Origin: an uncultured Gammaproteobacteria bacterium
GTDB taxonomy: Bacteria; Patescibacteriota; Microgenomatia; Daviesbacterales; UBA10151
Direction of reading: 5' to 3'
Assembly: GCA_964396715.1 (NCBI GenBank)
Contig: CAYNFQ010000003.1
Span: forward strand, 565-64,564
DNA: 64,000 nucleotides
A program made the translations under genes and the position numbers. The notes beneath the pieces are model-generated. The model was not told where the DNA came from and made no database searches. It worked only from the letters and a program-made list of their open reading frames with translations. Positions 10,418 through 36,048 of this stretch are shown here, in pieces (the first letter of the stretch is position 1; every line of letters starts with the position of its first letter).

Positions 10418-10724
10418 GAATCCAAATTACCAAATAAATCCCTAAGGTGTCAATACCCAAAAATTATCTTATTTTGGTGTATGGATACATAGTCGAACAG
10501 GAGCGAAGTATCTTGAACCCCTGCTTGAGTCAATTTTAACACATTGGAAACCTCTTAATATTGATTACACAAGTGTGACTCTCAACCAAATAAATGTAAC
10601 TAGAGCACAAACAAATGCGGGTGAACTTTATTATTAGTGATTAAGGTGATTGTGCTTGAACCTCTTATGTCTTTTTATAGTCTAACCCTGTTTTATCGCC
10701 GAATAGGAGTGTATAATTTAATGT

Positions 10725-10961
10725 ATGAATACTGATAACCCTAATCCAACTCCACCGAGTGACAATAGTCAGCAACAGACATCTGATTCCAGTAATAATA
10801 ACGATTCTGGTCAACCACTGGCAGATTTAGTAGATGCACTACAGTCAGTTGATACAGAGTCACCAGAAGCAGGACTAAACGCAACAAGCATAGATGACAA
10901 TAATGGAGGCAGGATAGAATTAAACGAAGATCCCTCAGATCCGAATGTTATTAAGAAGTAG
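10725..10961 (+). CDS. Small acidic hypothetical protein (island gene)
   Basis: ORF track only; low complexity, S/D/N-rich. Confidence 0.25.
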   Translation: MNTDNPNPTPPSDNSQQQTSDSSNNNDSGQPLADLVDALQSVDTESPEAGLNATSIDDNNGGRIELNEDPSDPNVIKK

Positions 10962-11364
10962 CACCTTGAACCCTATGGATATTGCTCAAACCGATCAAGA
11001 ATTACTTGAAAAAGAATTAAATACCAGTAGGCTAGATATTGACGAACTTGTTGAAGGTGATAAGGAAGTACCAATATTTCTGTCGGAATGGTTAAAAAAT
11101 GGGCTTAATGCCAGTGCAGCTTACAAAATCTTACACCCTAAAGTTAGTGATGCTTCAGCCAGAGTTTTAGGATCAAAAAAGTTAACAAAAATTAACATTT
11201 CCGCTATTTTGGCTGGATATGATCTCGGGTACAGTGATTATATCCTGGGTCTTAAAGAAGGTTTGATCGCCATGAAATTTAATGAACAAACAGGAGAAAA
11301 AGTACCAGATTACAAGGTAAGATTAGAATTTCACCGTATTTTAGGTAAATTATTAGGGTTTTAA
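10945..11364 (+). CDS. Phage terminase small subunit-like protein (P27/Terminase_2-like HTH)
   Basis: EWLKNGLNASAAYKILHPKVSDASARVLGSKKLTK matches the N-terminal HTH signature (G.NAT.AA..AGYS...A...GS.LL) of terminase small subunits. Confidence 0.45.
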   Translation: MLLRSSTLNPMDIAQTDQELLEKELNTSRLDIDELVEGDKEVPIFLSEWLKNGLNASAAYKILHPKVSDASARVLGSKKLTKINISAILAGYDLGYSDYILGLKEGLIAMKFNEQTGEKVPDYKVRLEFHRILGKLLGF

Positions 11365-11400
11365 ATAATCAACCTCTCCTTTACGAATTAAGTACAAGTT

Positions 11401-12210
11401 TTGAAAACGTTGACAAAAAGATATGCATCTAGCTATACTAAAAATAGGTTAATAAATGGATTATCTAAAGTAATTTATAAACATAGTAAAAATATGGAAC
11501 AAGGAATACCAGAAGATTTAAGTGCACTTGTTGCTCTCACAGGCGGTAGAAAGGATGATCAGCAAAGGGAGTCAGAAGGAATCAATGAATTCTTCAAAAT
11601 GTCCAAAGAACGACGTCATTTTCTTAGAGGGCACCTCGAAAAATTGGTAATGCAATATGCCTCCTCAATAAGACCGACTAAAAAGTCAGGACCACCAATA
11701 CCAGTTACAACACCTGAGGACGCACAACGAGTTATGTTTCTGCATGCTACTTACCAGTATTATCTTGATGTACTAACTGCAGCTGATATTATGGCTGACT
11801 ATCCTGATTTAGCAACTCGACGATATCCAGAACATATGTACGTGAGTGGTGACATTAGACTGTTACCACTAGGAGCAAATCCTAGACAAGCTGTCGAACA
11901 TTATCAAAATCAAGCAGCACTAAAGTTTGACCAGATTCGTGAGGCACAAGAGGAGGGGAATTGGCGTCCTCTCAAACGAGATTGGATGAGAAAAATTGAG
12001 AAACCAGAACCACTCAAATCCAGAAGAACAGGTCTAATTGGTAGTATTGAGGAAAAATGGCTAGCCGTGGCAAGGAGAGATTGGCTAAATGTTCGAATGT
12101 GGAATTTCGACAATAATTTTTATGATCTTCCATATGCTGCTCGTACTATTAATCTCATACCTGATAGAACAGAACCTGTATCTTACAGGCCAGACTTTAG
12201 ACTGAAATAG
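11401..12210 (+). CDS. Hypothetical protein (island gene)
   Basis: ORF track only; no recognisable motif. Confidence 0.25.
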   Translation: MKTLTKRYASSYTKNRLINGLSKVIYKHSKNMEQGIPEDLSALVALTGGRKDDQQRESEGINEFFKMSKERRHFLRGHLEKLVMQYASSIRPTKKSGPPIPVTTPEDAQRVMFLHATYQYYLDVLTAADIMADYPDLATRRYPEHMYVSGDIRLLPLGANPRQAVEHYQNQAALKFDQIREAQEEGNWRPLKRDWMRKIEKPEPLKSRRTGLIGSIEEKWLAVARRDWLNVRMWNFDNNFYDLPYAARTINLIPDRTEPVSYRPDFRLK

Positions 12211-12357
12211 AAATGTAAGGTTAAAGACTTTTTTCTCCTAAATCTATTTAAGTAAAAGCAAGCTCAAATACCCCAGCTTTTCCAAAACCAGATATTGTAG
12301 TATCATATTCAGGCGTAGGCTATTCAAATAACATCTCTATAATTTCTGTTACTTTAA

Positions 12358-13953
12358 ATGGATAATGAAGAAATTGATTTTACTAAGTTTAAGTATGTTC
12401 TTTATGCCCGTAAGTCTACAGATGATCCTCAGCGGCAAGTAAGATCTATAGGAGATCAGATATTTGAGTGTAAACAACTTGCTGCAAGACTTGGATTAAA
12501 TGTCATCAAGGTTTTAGAAGAAACAAAATCAGCTAAAAAGCCAAATAAGCGACCATTATTTAGACAAATGCTTAATGATCTCAAGAAAGGTCTCTATGAT
12601 GGCATATTGGCATGGAACCCAGATAGATTGGCTAGGAATATGAAAGAAGGTGGGGAGATTATAGACATGATTGATGAGGAGGAAATAAAGGATCTTAAAT
12701 TTGTTACGCATCATTTTACAAAAGATGCTAACGGAAAGATGCTACTTGGAATGTCATTTGTGCTTTCTAAACAATATAGTGACGATCTATCTCAAAAGGT
12801 AACAAGAGGAAATAAAAGAAAGCGTGCAGAGGGTAAATCATCTACACCCAAACATGGTTATATTATTACAGAGGAAGGTTATTATAAGCCTGACAAAAGA
12901 AATTTTGAATTGATTCAAACCGCATGGGAACTAAGAGCTAAAGGTGAATCCATAGAGCAAATAACAAAGTTTATGAATGATAATGATTACTCAAGAGTCA
13001 TTAAAAGGACAGGCAGAAAGGTTGACATGGATATGAGGATATTAAGTAAAATATTTAAAGATCCATTTTATTACGGAATTTTAATCCAAGCTAAACAAAC
13101 TGTTGATTTAAAAGATATATATAACTTTGTTTCAGCTACAACAGAGGATATTTATAATCAGGTTCAGCAACTTTCTTTTAGACGGCTCAGGCCTTTCAAT
13201 ATAAAACGAAGGTCTGTTTTCTATCCACTCAGAGGTATGATTATATGTTCTTTCTGCAACCATAATATGGTAGTAGGTCCATCAAAGGGCCAAGCTGGTA
13301 AAAGATTTCTCTATTACCGCTGTGATAATCCTTTTTGTACTAAAAACTCAGCAGAGAATCGTAAGAAGCATAGAAATGATCCCACAAAAATAAAGCCCTC
13401 TATTCGAGCAAGAGTAATATTTAATTTTATTTATGATCTATTAAAGGGTGGATTAGGTTTAACAGAGGAAGATTATAAGGGCTATTACGACAATTTAACC
13501 CAACTATCAGATACCACAAGAGAGAAAGTAGGGATTGAAATTCATAGTCTACAGGGAAGGCTAAAAAGACTAAATCAAGAAATAAAGGAACGCTCTTTGG
13601 AACTTGGTAAAGCTAATCAAATACCTACTGTTAAAAAAATCAATGAGGATAAGGTAATAGAACTTGAATCAGAGAAACTTGATTTAAGCAGCCAAATAGA
13701 AGAGTTTCAAGGAAAAATAACTAAACCAGAGGATGATAGGCTAAGTATAGAAGAATTCTTGAACCTCTCCAAAAATGCTGGTGCAATAATCCAATCGGCT
13801 GATGTAGTTATAAAAGATAAAATTTGTAGAGAAATTTTCTTGAACCTTACTGTTAATGAGGAGAAAGTATTGTCCTGTCAACTTCAACCTCACTTTGAGG
13901 AGATGATAAAACAACACCAACTACGTCATGGTCGAGATTTACGAAAAAGTTAG
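12358..13953 (+). CDS. Large serine recombinase (resolvase N-domain + recombinase domain + Zn-ribbon + coiled coil)
   Basis: YARKSTDDPQRQVRSIGDQI catalytic-Ser region, GILAWNPDRLARN, zinc ribbon CSFCNHNM...YYRCDNPFC, and a C-terminal coiled coil. Confidence 0.8.
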   Translation: MDNEEIDFTKFKYVLYARKSTDDPQRQVRSIGDQIFECKQLAARLGLNVIKVLEETKSAKKPNKRPLFRQMLNDLKKGLYDGILAWNPDRLARNMKEGGEIIDMIDEEEIKDLKFVTHHFTKDANGKMLLGMSFVLSKQYSDDLSQKVTRGNKRKRAEGKSSTPKHGYIITEEGYYKPDKRNFELIQTAWELRAKGESIEQITKFMNDNDYSRVIKRTGRKVDMDMRILSKIFKDPFYYGILIQAKQTVDLKDIYNFVSATTEDIYNQVQQLSFRRLRPFNIKRRSVFYPLRGMIICSFCNHNMVVGPSKGQAGKRFLYYRCDNPFCTKNSAENRKKHRNDPTKIKPSIRARVIFNFIYDLLKGGLGLTEEDYKGYYDNLTQLSDTTREKVGIEIHSLQGRLKRLNQEIKERSLELGKANQIPTVKKINEDKVIELESEKLDLSSQIEEFQGKITKPEDDRLSIEEFLNLSKNAGAIIQSADVVIKDKICREIFLNLTVNEEKVLSCQLQPHFEEMIKQHQLRHGRDLRKS

Positions 13954-14004
13954 AACCGAATTTCAAAGCTGTTAGCTCGGCCGCCTGCGGCGGCCTCGCT
14001 TCCG
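13929..14004. repeat. Inverted repeat a, left copy (76 bp, GC-rich, overlaps the last codons of the first recombinase). Its partner is 14935-15010, with 1 mismatch.
   Basis: Direct reverse-complement comparison of 13929-14004 with 14935-15010. Confidence 0.85.
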
Positions 14005-14020
14005 TTATTTTTTGCGCGCG

Positions 14021-14052
14021 CGATTTGTCTTTTTGCTGTCGCAAAAAGACCT
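14021..14052 (+). terminator. Hairpin gtctttttgc-tgtc-gcaaaaagac immediately after the first recombinase
   Basis: 10-bp stem; A/T-rich context. Confidence 0.35.
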
Positions 14053-14423
14053 TATTTAAACCCCGTGAACAGAACAATCACGAGTCCAACCATTGCCAAA
14101 AGAAAAATCGCCCAAGGAATAAAATAAACCGTTAATATTAATTTTGCTGACTTTTGATAATTTTTGATGTAAGGATCTTCGGGCAAAGGATTACTATCTT
14201 TATACCAACCATACAATTTGAGGGCAAAAACAACACTGTTTACTGGTAGCCTGGTATTTTTCCAGAAATCAGAATGTTTTTCTTCCATATACTTCCTAAA
14301 TTGTTGTGCTCGGATAGCTATAAACACAAACATGCCCGCTGTCCATACAACAACAAATAAAAAAGCTGGCATAAGCCACTGTCTGAAAAAAAATAATATA
14401 TTTAAAGTTGTATCTTGAGACAT
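14052..14423 (-). CDS. Small membrane protein (3 predicted TM helices) inside the inverted-repeat-flanked segment
   Basis: ORF track; hydrophobic segments; located between the inverted-repeat-a copies. Confidence 0.35.
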   Translation of the reverse strand: MSQDTTLNILFFFRQWLMPAFLFVVVWTAGMFVFIAIRAQQFRKYMEEKHSDFWKNTRLPVNSVVFALKLYGWYKDSNPLPEDPYIKNYQKSAKLILTVYFIPWAIFLLAMVGLVIVLFTGFK

Positions 14424-14501
14424 TTATTTAAACACCTCCTCCCGTCTAATACTTAGAATTAACTGTAATAATTATACAATTTATTATGAGTAGGCTGAGA
14501 T

Positions 14502-14516
14502 ACATCGGTAACACTT
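14502..14516. repeat. 15-bp inverted repeat c (acatcggtaacactt), partner 14706-14720; the pair flanks the 39-aa micro-ORF
   Basis: Seen directly; the chance expectation in this window is roughly 0.03. Confidence 0.5.
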
Positions 14517-14580
14517 TTCTTTTTGAACGACCCTTGCTTTTTGATTTTATCACGTCTATCTTATTCATATAGCCCAATTA

Positions 14581-14700
14581 GAACTTCTGACCCTTTTCAC
14601 TAGCTCCTGAAGCTATTTTGGTCATTTCTTGCTCAGTTGCACTGCCAACAAAGTTTAATCGTGCGATAAATTTATCAATAAATTCTTCTTTTGCCATAGA
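14581..14700 (-). CDS. Possible 39-aa micro-ORF (MAKEEFIDKFIARLNFVGSATEQEMTKIASGASEKGQKF) flanked by 15-bp inverted repeats
   Basis: Manual translation of the reverse strand. Too short for the ORF track; it may not be expressed. Confidence 0.15.
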
Positions 14701-14789
14701 TTTAGAAGTGTTACCGATGTGCCCTGCTCGTTCATATTATTGAAAAAACAAAATCAATGGAGTATTATTTTAATTGAGCTCAAGAACTG

Positions 14790-14850
14790 CGGGGATTTTT
14801 AATGGCCGTATTGGACAAGTCCTCGCGGATTTGAGCGCACCAGTACGGCC
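14790..14850. other. Long hairpin: 12-bp perfect stem (ttaatggccgta / tacggccattaa) with a 33-nt structured loop. It could be a recombination site or a small RNA.
   Basis: Seen directly. Confidence 0.4.
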
Positions 14851-14934
14851 ATTAATTTTTTATAAAGCTCTTTAAAATTTTTGCGTTTTCTTTTGAGGAT
14901 TTTACAAAAAAAATCCTTTTCGAGCCGATACGTT

Positions 14935-15010
14935 CGAAAGCGAGGCCGCCGCAGGCGGCCGAGCTAACAGCTTTGAAATTCGGTTCTAACTTTTTCGTAA
15001 ATCTCGACCA
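14935..15010. repeat. Inverted repeat a, right copy
   Basis: Reverse complement of 13929-14004 with 1 mismatch. Confidence 0.85.
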
Positions 15011-15107
15011 AAAGAGAGAAAAAGTCCGGAAAGGTGGAGGCGCTCCGTGCGCCGCCGCCCGCACGGAGCGCCGAGAAGCCCTTTTTATATTCTGCCGAGA
15101 GCTGCCG
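15008..15107. repeat. Inverted repeat b, left copy (100 bp, perfect). Its partner is 16551-16650. It contains an internal 13-bp-stem palindrome ggcgctccgtgcg/cgcacggagcgcc.
   Basis: Base-by-base reverse-complement identity over 100 nt. Confidence 0.9.
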
Positions 15108-15152
15108 GAAAAAAGAAGGAAAGAAAACGCAAAAATTTAGGAGAAACAAAAT

Positions 15153-16730
15153 ATGAACAAATACATCGCCTACTGCCGAAAATCCAGAGATGAAGCAGAC
15201 AAACAAGTTTTGTCTATCGAAGCGCAAATTGCCGAACTAAAGGAATTTGCCAGGCGAGAACATTTAGAAATTGTCGAGTTTATTGAGGAAGCCAAAACTG
15301 CCAAAATGCCAGGACGCGAGAAATTTTCCGAAGTGATTAAAAAAATCGAAAAAGGCTACGCCAATGGTATTCTCGCTTGGCACCCAGATCGTTTAGCCAG
15401 AAATTCGATGGACGGTGGAAAGATTGTCTATTTATTGGATATCGGTAAATTGGTCGATCTGAAATTCCCGACTTTCTGGTTTGACAATACCCCGCAAGGA
15501 AAATTTATGCTCTCAATCGCCTTTGGTCAATCAAAGTATTATGTAGACAATCTTTCCGAAAACGTCAAACGGGGCTTACGCCAAAAACTCCGAAACGGAG
15601 TTTGGCCAGCAAAAGCCCCTTATGGCTATGTGAACAATCCCAAAACCAGAGGCATAGATGTTGATCCTGAAAAATCAAAAGCTATTAAGCGAGCTTTTGA
15701 AATGTTTGCAGAAGGAAACCACACTTTTACAGACATAGCCAAATATCTTCGCAAGTTTGATCTGAAGCGTAAAAACGAAAAATCACTTCATATCAACGAA
15801 ATTCGGCAAATTCTCTCCAACAAGTTTTACATCGGGATTATGTTTTACAACGGCGAGTATCACGACGGAAACCATAAATGTTTTATCTCCAAAGAAATTT
15901 TTCAGGAGGCTCAAGAGGAAATAGCCAGAAGAAGCAAACATTTCAAAAAATCATACCGTTTTCCGTTTTTGGGACTTGCAAGGTGCAGCGAATGTGGTGC
16001 GGCCATCACCGCCGAACAACACATCAAGTTTTACAAAACCACTAACCGAAAAGTTAGTTATATTTACTATCGTTGTACCAAAAAACTCGGTCCGTGTTCC
16101 CAAGTTCCAATAACCAGTTTTGAGATGGAAGGACAGTTAAGAAAAGTTGTTTCTGATGTGGTGCTTCCCCAGAGTTGGGCTGACCACTGGCTGAAATTTT
16201 TGGAAAGAGATCAACAAGCTGAAAAAGAATCATCAGAAACAACTATCAAAAATCTCAAAATTGAAATTCAAGATGTAGATCGAAGGCAAAACACGCTTTT
16301 GGACAGTTATTTGGATAGTATCGTTGACCCCGAAACTTATAAATCCAAGAAAAACGAAATGTTCGAAACAAAACTTAAATTACAGGAAGAAATCGTCAAA
16401 GTTGAGGAGACGGGTTCGAGTTGGCTCGAACCTATGAGAGAGTTCATAAATTGCGCCTTACAGGCGCAAAAAATCGCGCGCGCAAAAAATAATTGCGAAG
16501 AATTAGCATTCTTCGCAAAACGTGTCGGCTCGAACTTCTTTTTATCTAATCGGCAGCTCTCGGCAGAATATAAAAAGGGCTTCTCGGCGCTCCGTGCGGG
16601 CGGCGGCGCACGGAGCGCCTCCACCTTTCCGGACTTTTTCTCTCTTTTGGTCGGGGTGACAGGAATTGAACCTGCTGCTTCACGCACCCCATGCGCGCGG
16701 TCTACCGATGACCTACACCCCGTATTCTAG
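15153..16730 (+). CDS. Large serine recombinase, second copy. The annotated 3-prime end reads through a 100-bp inverted repeat and the tRNA, so the true stop is uncertain.
   Basis: YCRKSRDEADKQVLSIEAQI, GILAWHPDRLARN, zinc ribbon CSECGAA...YYRCTKKLGPC, C-terminal coiled coil. Confidence 0.75.
   Translation: MNKYIAYCRKSRDEADKQVLSIEAQIAELKEFARREHLEIVEFIEEAKTAKMPGREKFSEVIKKIEKGYANGILAWHPDRLARNSMDGGKIVYLLDIGKLVDLKFPTFWFDNTPQGKFMLSIAFGQSKYYVDNLSENVKRGLRQKLRNGVWPAKAPYGYVNNPKTRGIDVDPEKSKAIKRAFEMFAEGNHTFTDIAKYLRKFDLKRKNEKSLHINEIRQILSNKFYIGIMFYNGEYHDGNHKCFISKEIFQEAQEEIARRSKHFKKSYRFPFLGLARCSECGAAITAEQHIKFYKTTNRKVSYIYYRCTKKLGPCSQVPITSFEMEGQLRKVVSDVVLPQSWADHWLKFLERDQQAEKESSETTIKNLKIEIQDVDRRQNTLLDSYLDSIVDPETYKSKKNEMFETKLKLQEEIVKVEETGSSWLEPMREFINCALQAQKIARAKNNCEELAFFAKRVGSNFFLSNRQLSAEYKKGFSALRAGGGARSASTFPDFFSLLVGVTGIEPAASRTPCARSTDDLHPVF
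16551..16650. repeat. Inverted repeat b, right copy; it abuts/overlaps the CCA end of tRNA-Pro
   Basis: Perfect reverse complement of 15008-15107. Confidence 0.9.
16648..16722 (-). tRNA. tRNA-Pro (anticodon GGG)
   Basis: The reverse complement CGGGGTGTAGGTCATCGGTAGACCGCGCGCATGGGGTGCGTGAAGCAGCAGGTTCAATTCCTGTCACCCCGACCA folds as a cloverleaf: 7-bp acceptor stem CGGGGTG/CACCCCG, D-stem GGTC/GACC, anticodon loop AUGGGGU, T-arm GCAGG-TTCAATT-CCTGT, encoded CCA. Confidence 0.75.
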
Positions 16731-26440: not shown

Positions 26441-26480
26441 ATTTCCAATTTGATATTTGATATTTGATATTTGATATTTG
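26441..26480. repeat. Heptamer tandem array (TTTGATA)x4-5 in the rpsK-rpsD intergenic region
   Basis: Seen directly. Confidence 0.9.
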
Positions 26481-26510
26481 CCGCCTTTGGCGAGCCTCGT
26501 CTTTGACGGG
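26479..26510. repeat. 32-bp GC-rich element tgccgcctttggcgagcctcgtctttgacggg, copy 1 (intergenic)
   Basis: Identical to 35690-35721. Confidence 0.85.
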
Positions 26511-35592: not shown

Positions 35593-36048
35593 CTATTCCT
35601 TACCTCCTTTCTCTATCTTTGAAGAAGATTTTATTTTTTTTACTGGTTTTTCTTTAATTTTTTCTGACTGTTTACTGTCCACTGTACCCTGCCGCCTTTG
35701 GCGAGCCTCGTCTTTGACGGGTTCACTTGCTTTGTCCTCCGGCATTACCTGCCTGCCGGCAGGCACGGCCTCAGCAATCACCTCTTCTGCTGCCATCTTC
35801 TGCTCAGCCTCAACAATTTCTGCTAAATTTTTGCCGACAACTTTGGTAATTTTGAAATGTTTATTCTTAGATACCGGCTTGCATTTTATGATCTCCACTA
35901 TATCTCCGTCTTTCACTCCAATAGAATCATCCGCTAAGTATTTTTTAGTTCTAATAAATGTTTTTTTATACAGGGGGTGGGCAGCTACTCGCTCCACAAT
36001 GACCGTGGCTGTATTTTGTAATTTTGTTGATGTCACCCTACCAATCAT
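35593..36048 (-). CDS. rpsQ: 30S ribosomal protein S17 with a C-terminal extension of about 70 aa
   Basis: Canonical S17 OB fold in residues 1-80; the extension contains the 32-bp repeat and a GC palindrome. Confidence 0.85.
   Translation of the reverse strand: MIGRVTSTKLQNTATVIVERVAAHPLYKKTFIRTKKYLADDSIGVKDGDIVEIIKCKPVSKNKHFKITKVVGKNLAEIVEAEQKMAAEEVIAEAVPAGRQVMPEDKASEPVKDEARQRRQGTVDSKQSEKIKEKPVKKIKSSSKIEKGGKE
35690..35721. repeat. 32-bp GC-rich element, copy 2, inside the rpsQ C-terminal extension (encodes PVKDEARQRRQ)
   Basis: Identical to 26479-26510. Confidence 0.85.

Follow-up and report, generated by a model that had tools for sequence, protein, structure and literature searches.

The 64,000-nt stretch analysed here (contig CAYNFQ010000003.1 of the GenBank assembly GCA_964396715.1, positions 565 to 64,564 of the forward strand; hereafter the window, numbered from its first nucleotide) contains two adjacent genes for large serine recombinases, Rec1 and Rec2, which are followed by a tRNA-Pro(GGG) gene and accompanied by two long inverted repeats. 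We consider it probable that this region comprises two small integrative elements, termed here E1 and E2, which were inserted in succession at the 3' end of the tRNA gene, and that E2 possesses three attachment (att)-type sites. As judged from its sequence, E2 spans positions 13935-16647, encodes Rec2, and displays three putative att-type sites assembled from four arms around a single 6-nt core. Two of these sites lie in direct orientation and bound the insertion, namely c1, which appears attL-like (flank-core-a), and c3, which appears attR-like (b'-core-tRNA). The third, c2 (a'-core-b; 14935-15107), is predicted to be a full attP-like site, which is inverted, situated between the cargo and the recombinase gene, and located 45 nt upstream of the Rec2 start codon.

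A repeat search of the window recovered only two inverted repeats of at least 30 nt. The arms of the first, IR-b (15005-15107 and 16551-16653), are 103 nt long, 100% complementary and separated by 1443 nt, and those of the second, IR-a (13929-14004 and 14935-15010), are 76 nt long, 99% complementary with a single mismatch, and separated by 930 nt. The internal GC-rich palindromes of IR-a and IR-b occur exactly twice each as against zero expected by chance. The right arm of IR-a overlaps the left arm of IR-b by the 6 nt CGACCA (15005-15010), and the same hexamer read as TGGTCG marks the start of the left arm of IR-a (at 13929) and the end of the right arm of IR-b (16648-16653). This core hexamer, TGGTCG/CGACCA, is the 3' end, including the CCA, of the tRNA-Pro(GGG) gene (16648-16722, minus strand; Rfam 55 bits), which is intact, overlaps the right arm of IR-b by these 6 nt and represents the predicted integration target. 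As IR-a corresponds to the arm a common to c1 and c2, and IR-b to the arm b common to c2 and c3, the two repeats abut each other and the outer one touches the tRNA. A first-pass annotation of this DNA had reported long inverted repeats sharing a junction, with strong internal palindromes in both, an IR-a of 76 bp with one mismatch whose arms are 930 bp apart and within which Rec1 ends, and an overlap of the distal IR-b copy with the CCA end of the tRNA; the repeat finder and the open reading frames (ORFs) bear out each of these points, and the repeats are real and biological. Its description of IR-b as a perfect repeat that brackets the Rec2 gene likewise holds, with the length of 100 nt given there now corrected to 103 nt.

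Each arm has a distinct composition on the plus strand. The left arm of IR-a (arm a) starts with the core of c1, TGGTCG (13929-13934), at which E1 meets E2 and which forms the attL-like junction of the latter, and continues as a putative attP-type half-site with a mimic of the tRNA T-arm, GTTAGAACC, followed by a GC hairpin. The right arm of IR-a (a') provides the left half of c2, and the left arm of IR-b (b) its right half, which consists of the core CGACCA, an A-rich half-site, a GC hairpin with a 13-bp stem and a T-run. The right arm of IR-b (b'), when read on the minus strand, gives the CCA end of the tRNA and a downstream hairpin, and makes up the left half of c3. In the family at large, for which the arms of 27 loci were compared, the core comprises the last two acceptor-stem bases, the discriminator and C74, and often extends through A76. 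The consensus of arm b, in the orientation of the tRNA, starts with the CCA, after which come an A-rich stretch, a GC hairpin and a T-run, implying that the element supplies the 3' end of the tRNA along with its trailer.

Arm a is borne by the element and conserved among elements residing at different tRNAs. Beyond the core it contains …TTTACGAAAAAATTCGAAC…, which mimics the reverse-complemented T-arm, GGATTCGAACC. The T-loop-like TTCGAAC motif of this arm attains its best register at a shift of +4 or +5 nt with respect to the real T-arm in 63 of 82 unique loci, and the difference in motif position between arm a and the T-arm of the tRNA is +5 in 34 of 41. In serine integrases the motif bound by the zinc-ribbon domain (ZD) is displaced by 5 bp between attP and attB, being nearer to the centre in attB (PMC3783163). 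The outward offset of 4-5 nt seen in the arm a mimic matches this published signature, which argues that arm a is of the attP type. Furthermore, a dyad symmetry, though weak, is apparent in c2 around the last base pairs of the acceptor stem (0.338 matches versus a maximum of 0.277 in 200 shuffles), and the motif common to arms a and b at symmetric positions is A-rich. An interpretation of IR-a as a degraded tRNA or a duplicated copy of the host target was rejected: ARAGORN and Rfam searches find nothing at IR-a, and the conservation of arm a across different tRNAs as well as the offset of its T-loop motif speak against it.

To place E2 in a wider context we conducted a census of about 160 related loci, 79 of which were fetched from species genomes and 80 from metagenomes. 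Among the 84 loci with enough flanking sequence to be testable, a repeat of the IR-b type flanks the recombinase gene in 76 (median 93 nt, 98.9% identity), and 66 of the 84 combine it with a convergent tRNA gene that shares 4-8 nt at its 3' end, usually 4 or 6, with the distal arm. The tRNAs targeted in this manner belong to 25 species, which include those for Ser, Pro, Trp, Gln, Ile, Glu, Tyr, Leu, Ala, Val, Gly, Arg and Lys. When the 60 loci with both IR-b and at least 3 kb of upstream sequence were searched for IR-a, a repeat of this type was found in 48 (median 107 nt, 99.1% identity), with its right arm overlapping the left arm of IR-b by a few nt and its arms spaced 0.6-6 kb apart; loci in which no IR-a partner was detected still display an a'-like sequence beside b. 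The same layout occurs in the complete genomes CP011214 and CP011210 of the Candidate Phyla Radiation (CPR) and in the isolate Schleiferia thermophila DSM 21410, and is thus not an artefact of assembly. Our literature searches turned up no description of it, which is weak evidence of novelty given their incomplete coverage.

These observations bear on whether the repeats of the window itself might have been created by a chimeric or fold-back join. In the NCBI assembly GCA_016192255.1 the region is represented by two contigs, JACPUL010000009 and JACPUL010000002, which overlap by 31 nt at 14597-14627, inside the cargo segment of E2 and within a 39-aa ORF; the window differs from the two contigs at 1 and 4 positions, and hence represents another assembly of the same population, which is also present in the sequencing runs SRR12113383-SRR12113431. 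This short overlap could be taken to point to an artefactual join, as could the breaks of the short-k Logan contigs at 16650, the outer edge of IR-b, although such breaks are expected for a repeat longer than k. However, a single NCBI contig contains IR-b, c2 and c3, and no join is present at 15008 or 16650, the positions at which the first-pass annotation had advised looking for chimeric joins. With the same architecture recurring in most of the approximately 160 loci, drawn from many projects and assemblers and including complete genomes and an isolate, an artefact is effectively refuted by the census and its probability is negligible. The arms of IR-a fall on different contigs, so that their relative orientation depends on the 31-nt join; the cargo orientation in the window was accepted because it is that of 56 of 57 related loci.

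Rec1 (12358-13953, plus strand) and Rec2 (15153-16730, plus strand) both display Resolvase, Recombinase and Zn_ribbon_recom domains, and are 31% identical to each other. The resolvase domain (Pfam PF00239) is detected with E=7.6e-22 in Rec2 and E=9.6e-25 in Rec1. PF07508 scores 56.7 bits in Rec2 and 23.0 bits in Rec1 (cut-off 21.1), and PF13408 scores 26.0 bits in Rec2 (cut-off 25.3) and 24.8 bits, just under the cut-off, in Rec1. The catalytic serine (S11 in Rec2 and S20 in Rec1) is invariant in the respective family alignments, as are the zinc-ribbon cysteines C278, C281, C308 and C315 in that of Rec2, and we predict Rec2 to be a bona fide large serine recombinase. The closest solved structure is that of the SPbeta integrase SprA. 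Homologues of Rec2 number in the thousands and are mostly from Patescibacteria (CPR), with further members in Bacteroidota, Nitrospirota and other phyla. Phage and plasmid collections contain only distant relatives, with at most 27% identity to Rec2; viral collections yielded one distant relative of Rec2 and no relative when searched with Rec1.

The Rec2 homologues have a conserved C-terminal tail, …KRVGSNFFLSNRQLSAEYKKGF…SLLVG, beyond which they diverge; the various endings (GIEP, RLEL and RVEL, for example) correspond to the T-arms of different tRNAs translated in antisense, and all homologues read through into the tRNA. In Rec2, residues 467-500 are encoded by the right arm of IR-b and the last 25 by the antisense strand of the tRNA. 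Two homologues are extended at the N-terminus by residues translated from the upstream copy of IR-b, which offered the first sign that the repeat is conserved. The Rec2 ORF contains the crossover core, and its last residues (16647-16730 in the window) therefore depend on context: the integrated form has a tail of about 25 residues of antisense tRNA, and a conceptual join to position 13935 gives an excised or flipped form with a tail of 13 residues, VEIYEKVRTEFQSC. A subgroup of the homologues (P0016, P0019, P0022 and others) attains a length of about 870-917 aa, almost double the usual one, with about 46% identity over 94% of Rec2.

The other recombinase gene, Rec1, appears from its surroundings to belong to a separate and conventional integrative element, E1 (about 10488-13934, 3.4 kb). 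The left junction of E1 (10488-10525, plus strand) consists of a core-like TAGTCG, a 1-nt variant of the core, followed by a T-arm mimic, …TATCTTGAACCCC, whose distance from the core exceeds that in a real tRNA by about 5 nt; TAGTCG-AACAGGAGCGAAGTATCTTGAACC at 10488, just to the right of the recA promoter region, thus reproduces the pattern of a core with an offset T-arm. The interval between this junction and Rec1 encodes three ORFs (10725-12210, plus strand) of 78, 139 and 269 aa, of which the 139-aa one weakly matches terminase small subunits or helix-turn-helix (HTH) proteins and the other two have no assigned function. The repeat search of the window found no repeats flanking Rec1; its stop codon and last 8 codons lie within the left arm of IR-a. 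The homologues of Rec1 terminate with …SRG and a tail read from the antisense strand of a tRNA, for example ERTRTSDL (…SRGERTRTSDL), and this sister family too seems to target tRNA ends. The view that Rec1 is a part of the Rec2 unit was dismissed in light of the missing flanking repeats, the independent termination of its family at tRNA antisense sequences and the left arm of E1 at about 10488. The first-pass annotation had seen the two recombinases as occupying two contiguous invertible units; this does not hold, as Rec1 belongs to the repeat-free E1 and both repeats belong to E2.

In both E1 and E2 the recombinase gene occupies the tRNA-proximal end and converges on the tRNA. As E2 is located between E1 and the tRNA, it was evidently inserted later, into the regenerated tRNA end. 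A tandem of a Rec1-like gene and an E2-type element at tRNA-Pro(GGG) recurs in the loci L002, L094 and L095, and L036 is a chain of two E2-type elements. Such tandem insertions imply that the flank-side half of the target can be almost anything and that recognition rests on the tRNA half. The region is surrounded by recA, recX, RNase Y and metK, indicating a chromosomal location, with recA, recX and RNase Y directly to the left of the E1 left junction marking the chromosomal side.

Comparisons of tRNA synteny between related genomes support the predicted insertion boundaries, at the level of synteny. The genes for tRNA-Tyr(gta) and tRNA-Thr(ggt) are 70 nt apart in L040 and split by an element in L052, and those for tRNA-Val(tac) and tRNA-Phe(gaa) are adjacent in L001 and split in L014, where the left arm ends 20 nt from tRNA-Phe. 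In L026 and L027 (at about 7.5-11.5 kb) the conserved tRNA array Leu-Leu-Val-Phe-Gly, which is co-oriented in L001, is split into oppositely oriented blocks, and in both of these genomes two of the elements lie within 13 kb. Inversions between tRNA ends may be promoted by these elements or by the spare attP that they carry. In L121 (3704-3788) tandemly duplicated 3' halves of tRNA-Ile lie between the element and the intact tRNA, and in L133 (from 3061 onward) the b' arm runs straight into …AFGQSKYYVDSLSENVKRG…, a piece from the interior of a different recombinase gene. The two structures look like scars of repeated or aberrant recombination, to judge by their sequences.

The presence of more than one copy in a genome, as in L026 and L027, along with the superficial resemblance of the b-rec-b' unit to a transposon with terminal inverted repeats, might suggest that Rec2 and its 103-bp repeats constitute a self-transposing insertion sequence, with the IR-a unit as a second, non-autonomous element; a transposon-like unit with 100-bp terminal repeats had indeed been offered as an alternative in the first-pass annotation. 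This proposal is very improbable and fails on several counts. Every b-rec-b' unit seen has an a' arm on one side, and nearly all have on the other either the 3' end of a tRNA gene or a remnant resembling a tRNA. There is no direct target-site duplication, the core being direct at c1 and c3 and inverted at c2, and the arms are delimited by the tRNA core and not by a random target. Moreover, by the established mechanism, serine-recombinase chemistry acting on two inverted ends results in inversion and not in excision.

The first-pass annotation had proposed phase-variable switches that regulate expression, in which the recombinase would invert both the 930-bp cargo flanked by the IR-a arms and the segment with its own gene flanked by the IR-b arms. 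In the window the left arm of IR-a (13929-14004) is followed by TTATTTTTTGCGCG. With the cargo flipped the same arm is expected to be followed by AACGTATCGGCTCGAAAAGG, and with the recombinase segment flipped 15005-15107 should continue into the reverse-complemented sequence that ends at 16550, ATTAGATAAAAAGAAGTTCGAGCC…. The long near-perfect repeats adjoining a recombinase gene are compatible with such switching, and in one relative, L045, the cargo is inverted exactly at IR-a relative to five other loci. The ends of contigs might also be cited in its favour, since 39 related contigs terminate inside the region of c2, 50-449 nt upstream of the recombinase gene, and 25 within b' or the tRNA, as could be caused by heterogeneity of orientation. 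We set this enrichment aside as uninformative, because repeats longer than the common assembly k-mers are already expected to break contigs at these places. The search for relatives with inverted segments, which the first-pass annotation had advised, found the cargo flipped in only 1 of 57 loci (L045) and the recombinase segment in 0 of the 76 with IR-b (among the 84 testable), with no tRNA on the upstream side of the left arm of IR-b. When classified by their end motifs, 28 of 28 Pro-type and 28 of 29 Ser-type loci have the same cargo orientation. A cargo-versus-cargo BLAST comparison showed homologous cargo pairs of at least 250 nt to be co-oriented in every pair, and identical recombinase proteins encoded on 8 and on 5 independent contigs occur in one arrangement each. 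The arms being identical, flipping would leave the junction sequences unchanged, with the same signals offered by each arm to either end of the segment, and promoter-like matches are at chance level. Furthermore, attL and attR are not partners for attP in recombination by canonical serine integrases (PMC3783163).

We therefore regard regulation by inversion as unlikely, though inversion in a minority of cells is possible, and E2, on the comparative sequence data, does not qualify as a demonstrated on/off DNA switch. L045 presents a clean cargo inversion with breakpoints inside its IR-a, a 117-nt repeat, confirmed against five relatives, and is most simply explained by homologous recombination across that repeat. 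Of the reasoning behind the switch proposal, two parts stand, namely that long inverted repeats are not the product of simple integration and that they are functionally tied to the recombinase; the phase-variable switch itself is not shown by the comparative data. The location of a recombinase gene within its own invertible segment, which had been viewed as unusual, is not so in itself. The hin gene, for instance, lies inside the segment that it inverts.

Returning to the proposal that E2 is an integrative element with three att-type sites, a mechanism can be outlined that goes beyond what the sequences themselves show, namely the geometry of the shared arms and its conservation in the family, the targeting of tRNA ends, the attP-type spacing of arm a and the concerted evolution of the arms. 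Rec2 would recombine the attP of a circular form with attB at the 3' end of the tRNA gene and thereby integrate it, whereupon arm b would restore the CCA and a terminator-like downstream hairpin. The inverted site c2 would be retained through its predicted binding by Rec2, and our best guess is that it would act as an operator along with a terminator or insulator block between the divergent recombinase and cargo units. What keeps the arms of about 100 nt identical would be gene conversion or an occasional homologous inversion, not flipping catalysed by the integrase. The signature of concerted evolution is apparent in the arms themselves: within a locus the identity of the two copies is 98.9% for b and 99.6% for a, and between loci it is 87% for b and 90% for a (254 pairs, with recombinase genes about 85% identical), indicating that the arm copies are homogenised faster than the elements diverge. 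Gene conversion is the default explanation for this homogenisation, and regeneration of the arms during the mobility cycle is a possible one.

A circular intermediate also invites comparison with the yeast 2-micron plasmid. When c1 and c3 are joined, the product is necessarily a circle with two identical sites of about 180 bp in inverted orientation, which would divide it into a recombinase arc and a cargo arc. Accordingly, the excised form could be a plasmid of the 2-micron kind, of which the integrated form is one isomer, and recombination between the attP copies would flip the arcs, homogenise the arms or amplify the circle. The concerted evolution of the arms and the one inverted cargo arc (L045) are in line with this idea. 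Nevertheless, no circular junction was found in the small set of sequences searched, there are no close relatives in the plasmid or phage collections (the identity of at most 27% given above), integration is seen in a single orientation only, and the minimal 2.7-kb element of the window lacks a replication gene. All told, we see a plasmid life of this kind as a rather improbable state for E2.

Several observations weigh against the interpretation of E2 as an integrated element with three functional att-type sites. The junction expected of the excised circle (b'-core-a joined to the left cargo end; in the window 16551-16653 followed by AGATTTACG…CTTCCGTTATTTTTTGCG) was absent from the viral contigs and from 174 fetched loci, a small search space, and contigs of this population carrying recA and the downstream phosphatase gene revealed no empty tRNA-Pro allele, the short-k contigs breaking at 16650 and 16694. 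With neither circle nor empty site in hand, the mobility of E2 is deduced from its distribution only. The c1 x c3 circle would hold two identical inverted attP copies and predicts integration in both orientations, but the recombinase gene always converges on the tRNA. An operator would need about 50 bp and not 76-160 nt, so that the long perfect arms are explained only after the fact, by a combination of half-site, hairpin and gene conversion. Scans for promoters and terminators returned counts at chance level, and IR-b is missing from about 10% of the loci. That the internal inverted attP is a working cis element which defines a distinct class of serine-integrase elements is a tentative idea, possible but some way from being established.

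The cargo of E2 displays conserved ends and a variable interior. Its left end is a 22-nt T-tract motif, TTATTTTTTGCGCGCGCGATTT (14005-14026, plus strand), which is the exact reverse complement of the Rec2 codons for KIARAKNN (16471-16492) and is conserved in position in 28 related loci. A terminator-like hairpin (14027-14050) is followed by an ORF for a hydrophobic protein of 123 aa (14052-14423, minus strand), which has no family match and is unique to this genome, and by an ORF of 39 aa (14578-14697, minus strand), bracketed by a 15-nt inverted repeat (14502-14516 and 14706-14720). A second hairpin (14799-14855) precedes the conserved right end (14875-14934, plus strand), which comprises reverse-complement copies of the Rec2 5' leader (14875-14893 versus 15120-15138) and of the codons for KRVGSN (14919-14934 versus 16519-16534). 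The hydrophobic ORF, credited with three transmembrane segments in the first-pass annotation, the bracketed 39-aa ORF and the two hairpins had all been listed there, and all are present. KIARAKNN and KRVGSN are invariant peptide motifs of Rec2 whose coding DNA recurs in reverse complement at the cargo ends in most family members. This suggests either a dual constraint on these segments, as protein and as DNA site or terminator tail, or old gene-conversion tracts.

The interior of the cargo (14021-14790) has no match in the fetched related loci, only about 20 nt at the left end and about 100 nt at the right end being conserved. A gene for an XRE-type HTH protein lies beside c2 in 31 related loci, in 30 of which it is divergent from the recombinase gene; the cargo of the window has no HTH regulator. 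The cargo of other loci includes LexA-like proteins, a restriction-modification system and other genes. In L171 it comprises a complete restriction-modification set, made up of a DNA methylase, an NgoFVII-type endonuclease and a Z1 domain protein, along with an HTH/M78-peptidase pair and ThiF/E2/JAB-like genes. This gene set indicates that the elements carry defence-type cargo.

E2 combines features of several previously characterized systems without coinciding with any of them. Like the large serine integrases (A118/LI, phiC31, Bxb1 and SprA of SPbeta), Rec2 has resolvase, recombinase and zinc-ribbon domains, its gene adjoins the attachment site, and the sites follow the attP/attB rule whereby the common motif is about 5 bp further out on the element side (PMC3783163). 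Unlike them, elements of the E2 type target the extreme 3' end of many different tRNA genes, have their attP core inside the 3' end of the integrase ORF, and retain a complete inverted attP copy when integrated, with repeats of 76-160 nt that evolve in concert; the 2.7-kb element of the window has no evident directionality factor. The islands inserted by tyrosine integrases (P4-type islands and tycheposons) are comparable in their insertion at tRNA 3' ends, the restoration of the tRNA by element sequence, the formation of tandem arrays at one tRNA and the variable cargo, which includes restriction-modification and regulator genes. In contrast to these, E2 employs a serine recombinase and a core of 4-8 nt rather than a duplicated 3' segment of the tRNA, and its internal inverted site is without a counterpart there.

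The Hin/Gin/Cin/Pin switches share the serine chemistry and, as with hin, a recombinase gene located between inverted copies of its site. However, they rely on small recombinases, 26-bp sites and an enhancer with Fis, and both orientations coexist, whereas E2 has a large integrase-type enzyme, the sites flanking its recombinase gene are attP-like and attR-like, and a single orientation of this gene is seen. The yeast 2-micron plasmid, with its Flp/FRT system and 599-bp inverted repeats, would resemble an excised E2 in being a circle split by two long identical inverted repeats that bear the target, with the recombinase gene in one unique arc. It differs in being a eukaryotic plasmid with a tyrosine recombinase and a replication origin, while E2 is known here from integrated sequence alone. 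Finally, in the integration-dependent immunity of mycobacteriophages the crossover likewise takes place in the 3' end of an ORF and integration changes the C-terminal tail, but the genes affected there are those for the repressor and for a tyrosine or serine integrase with degradation tags.

Elsewhere in the window a perfect 32-nt direct repeat, TGCCGCCTTTGGCGAGCCTCGTCTTTGACGGG, occurs at 26479-26510 and 35690-35721, with copies 9.2 kb apart, and a similar motif, GTCTTTGACGGGG, lies downstream of the element in L141. Short arrays of 7-nt units (ATTTGAA, ATTTGAC or ATTTGGA) are found at positions 1275, 26430, 32778, 37422 and 63834.

Serine integrases are valued in genome engineering for their simple directional attP x attB logic. 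The elements described here provide a large family of uncharacterised integrases for which attP, attB (the tRNA 3' ends), attL and attR can be read directly from genomes, and whose members carry a conserved extra attP that lies outside the canonical models. This raises the mechanistic questions of what role the retained inverted attP plays and why the arms of about 100 nt are kept identical. Should the extra site prove to be a working part of the element, a recombinase dimer held at c2 beside attL and attR could let a minimal element excise or rearrange without a separate directionality factor. Alternatively, c2 could endow the excised circle with two inverted sites for flipping or amplification in the manner of the 2-micron plasmid, or serve as a landing pad in the chromosome, where recombination with other tRNA ends would reshuffle tRNA gene arrays. 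In that event the family would represent a new form of control over the directionality of serine integrases, encoded in DNA architecture and widespread in CPR bacteria. At the genomic level, repeats of the E2 type explain the frequent assembly breaks beside tRNA genes in these organisms, and the elements constitute a common vehicle for defence and regulator genes in the tiny genomes of the CPR.

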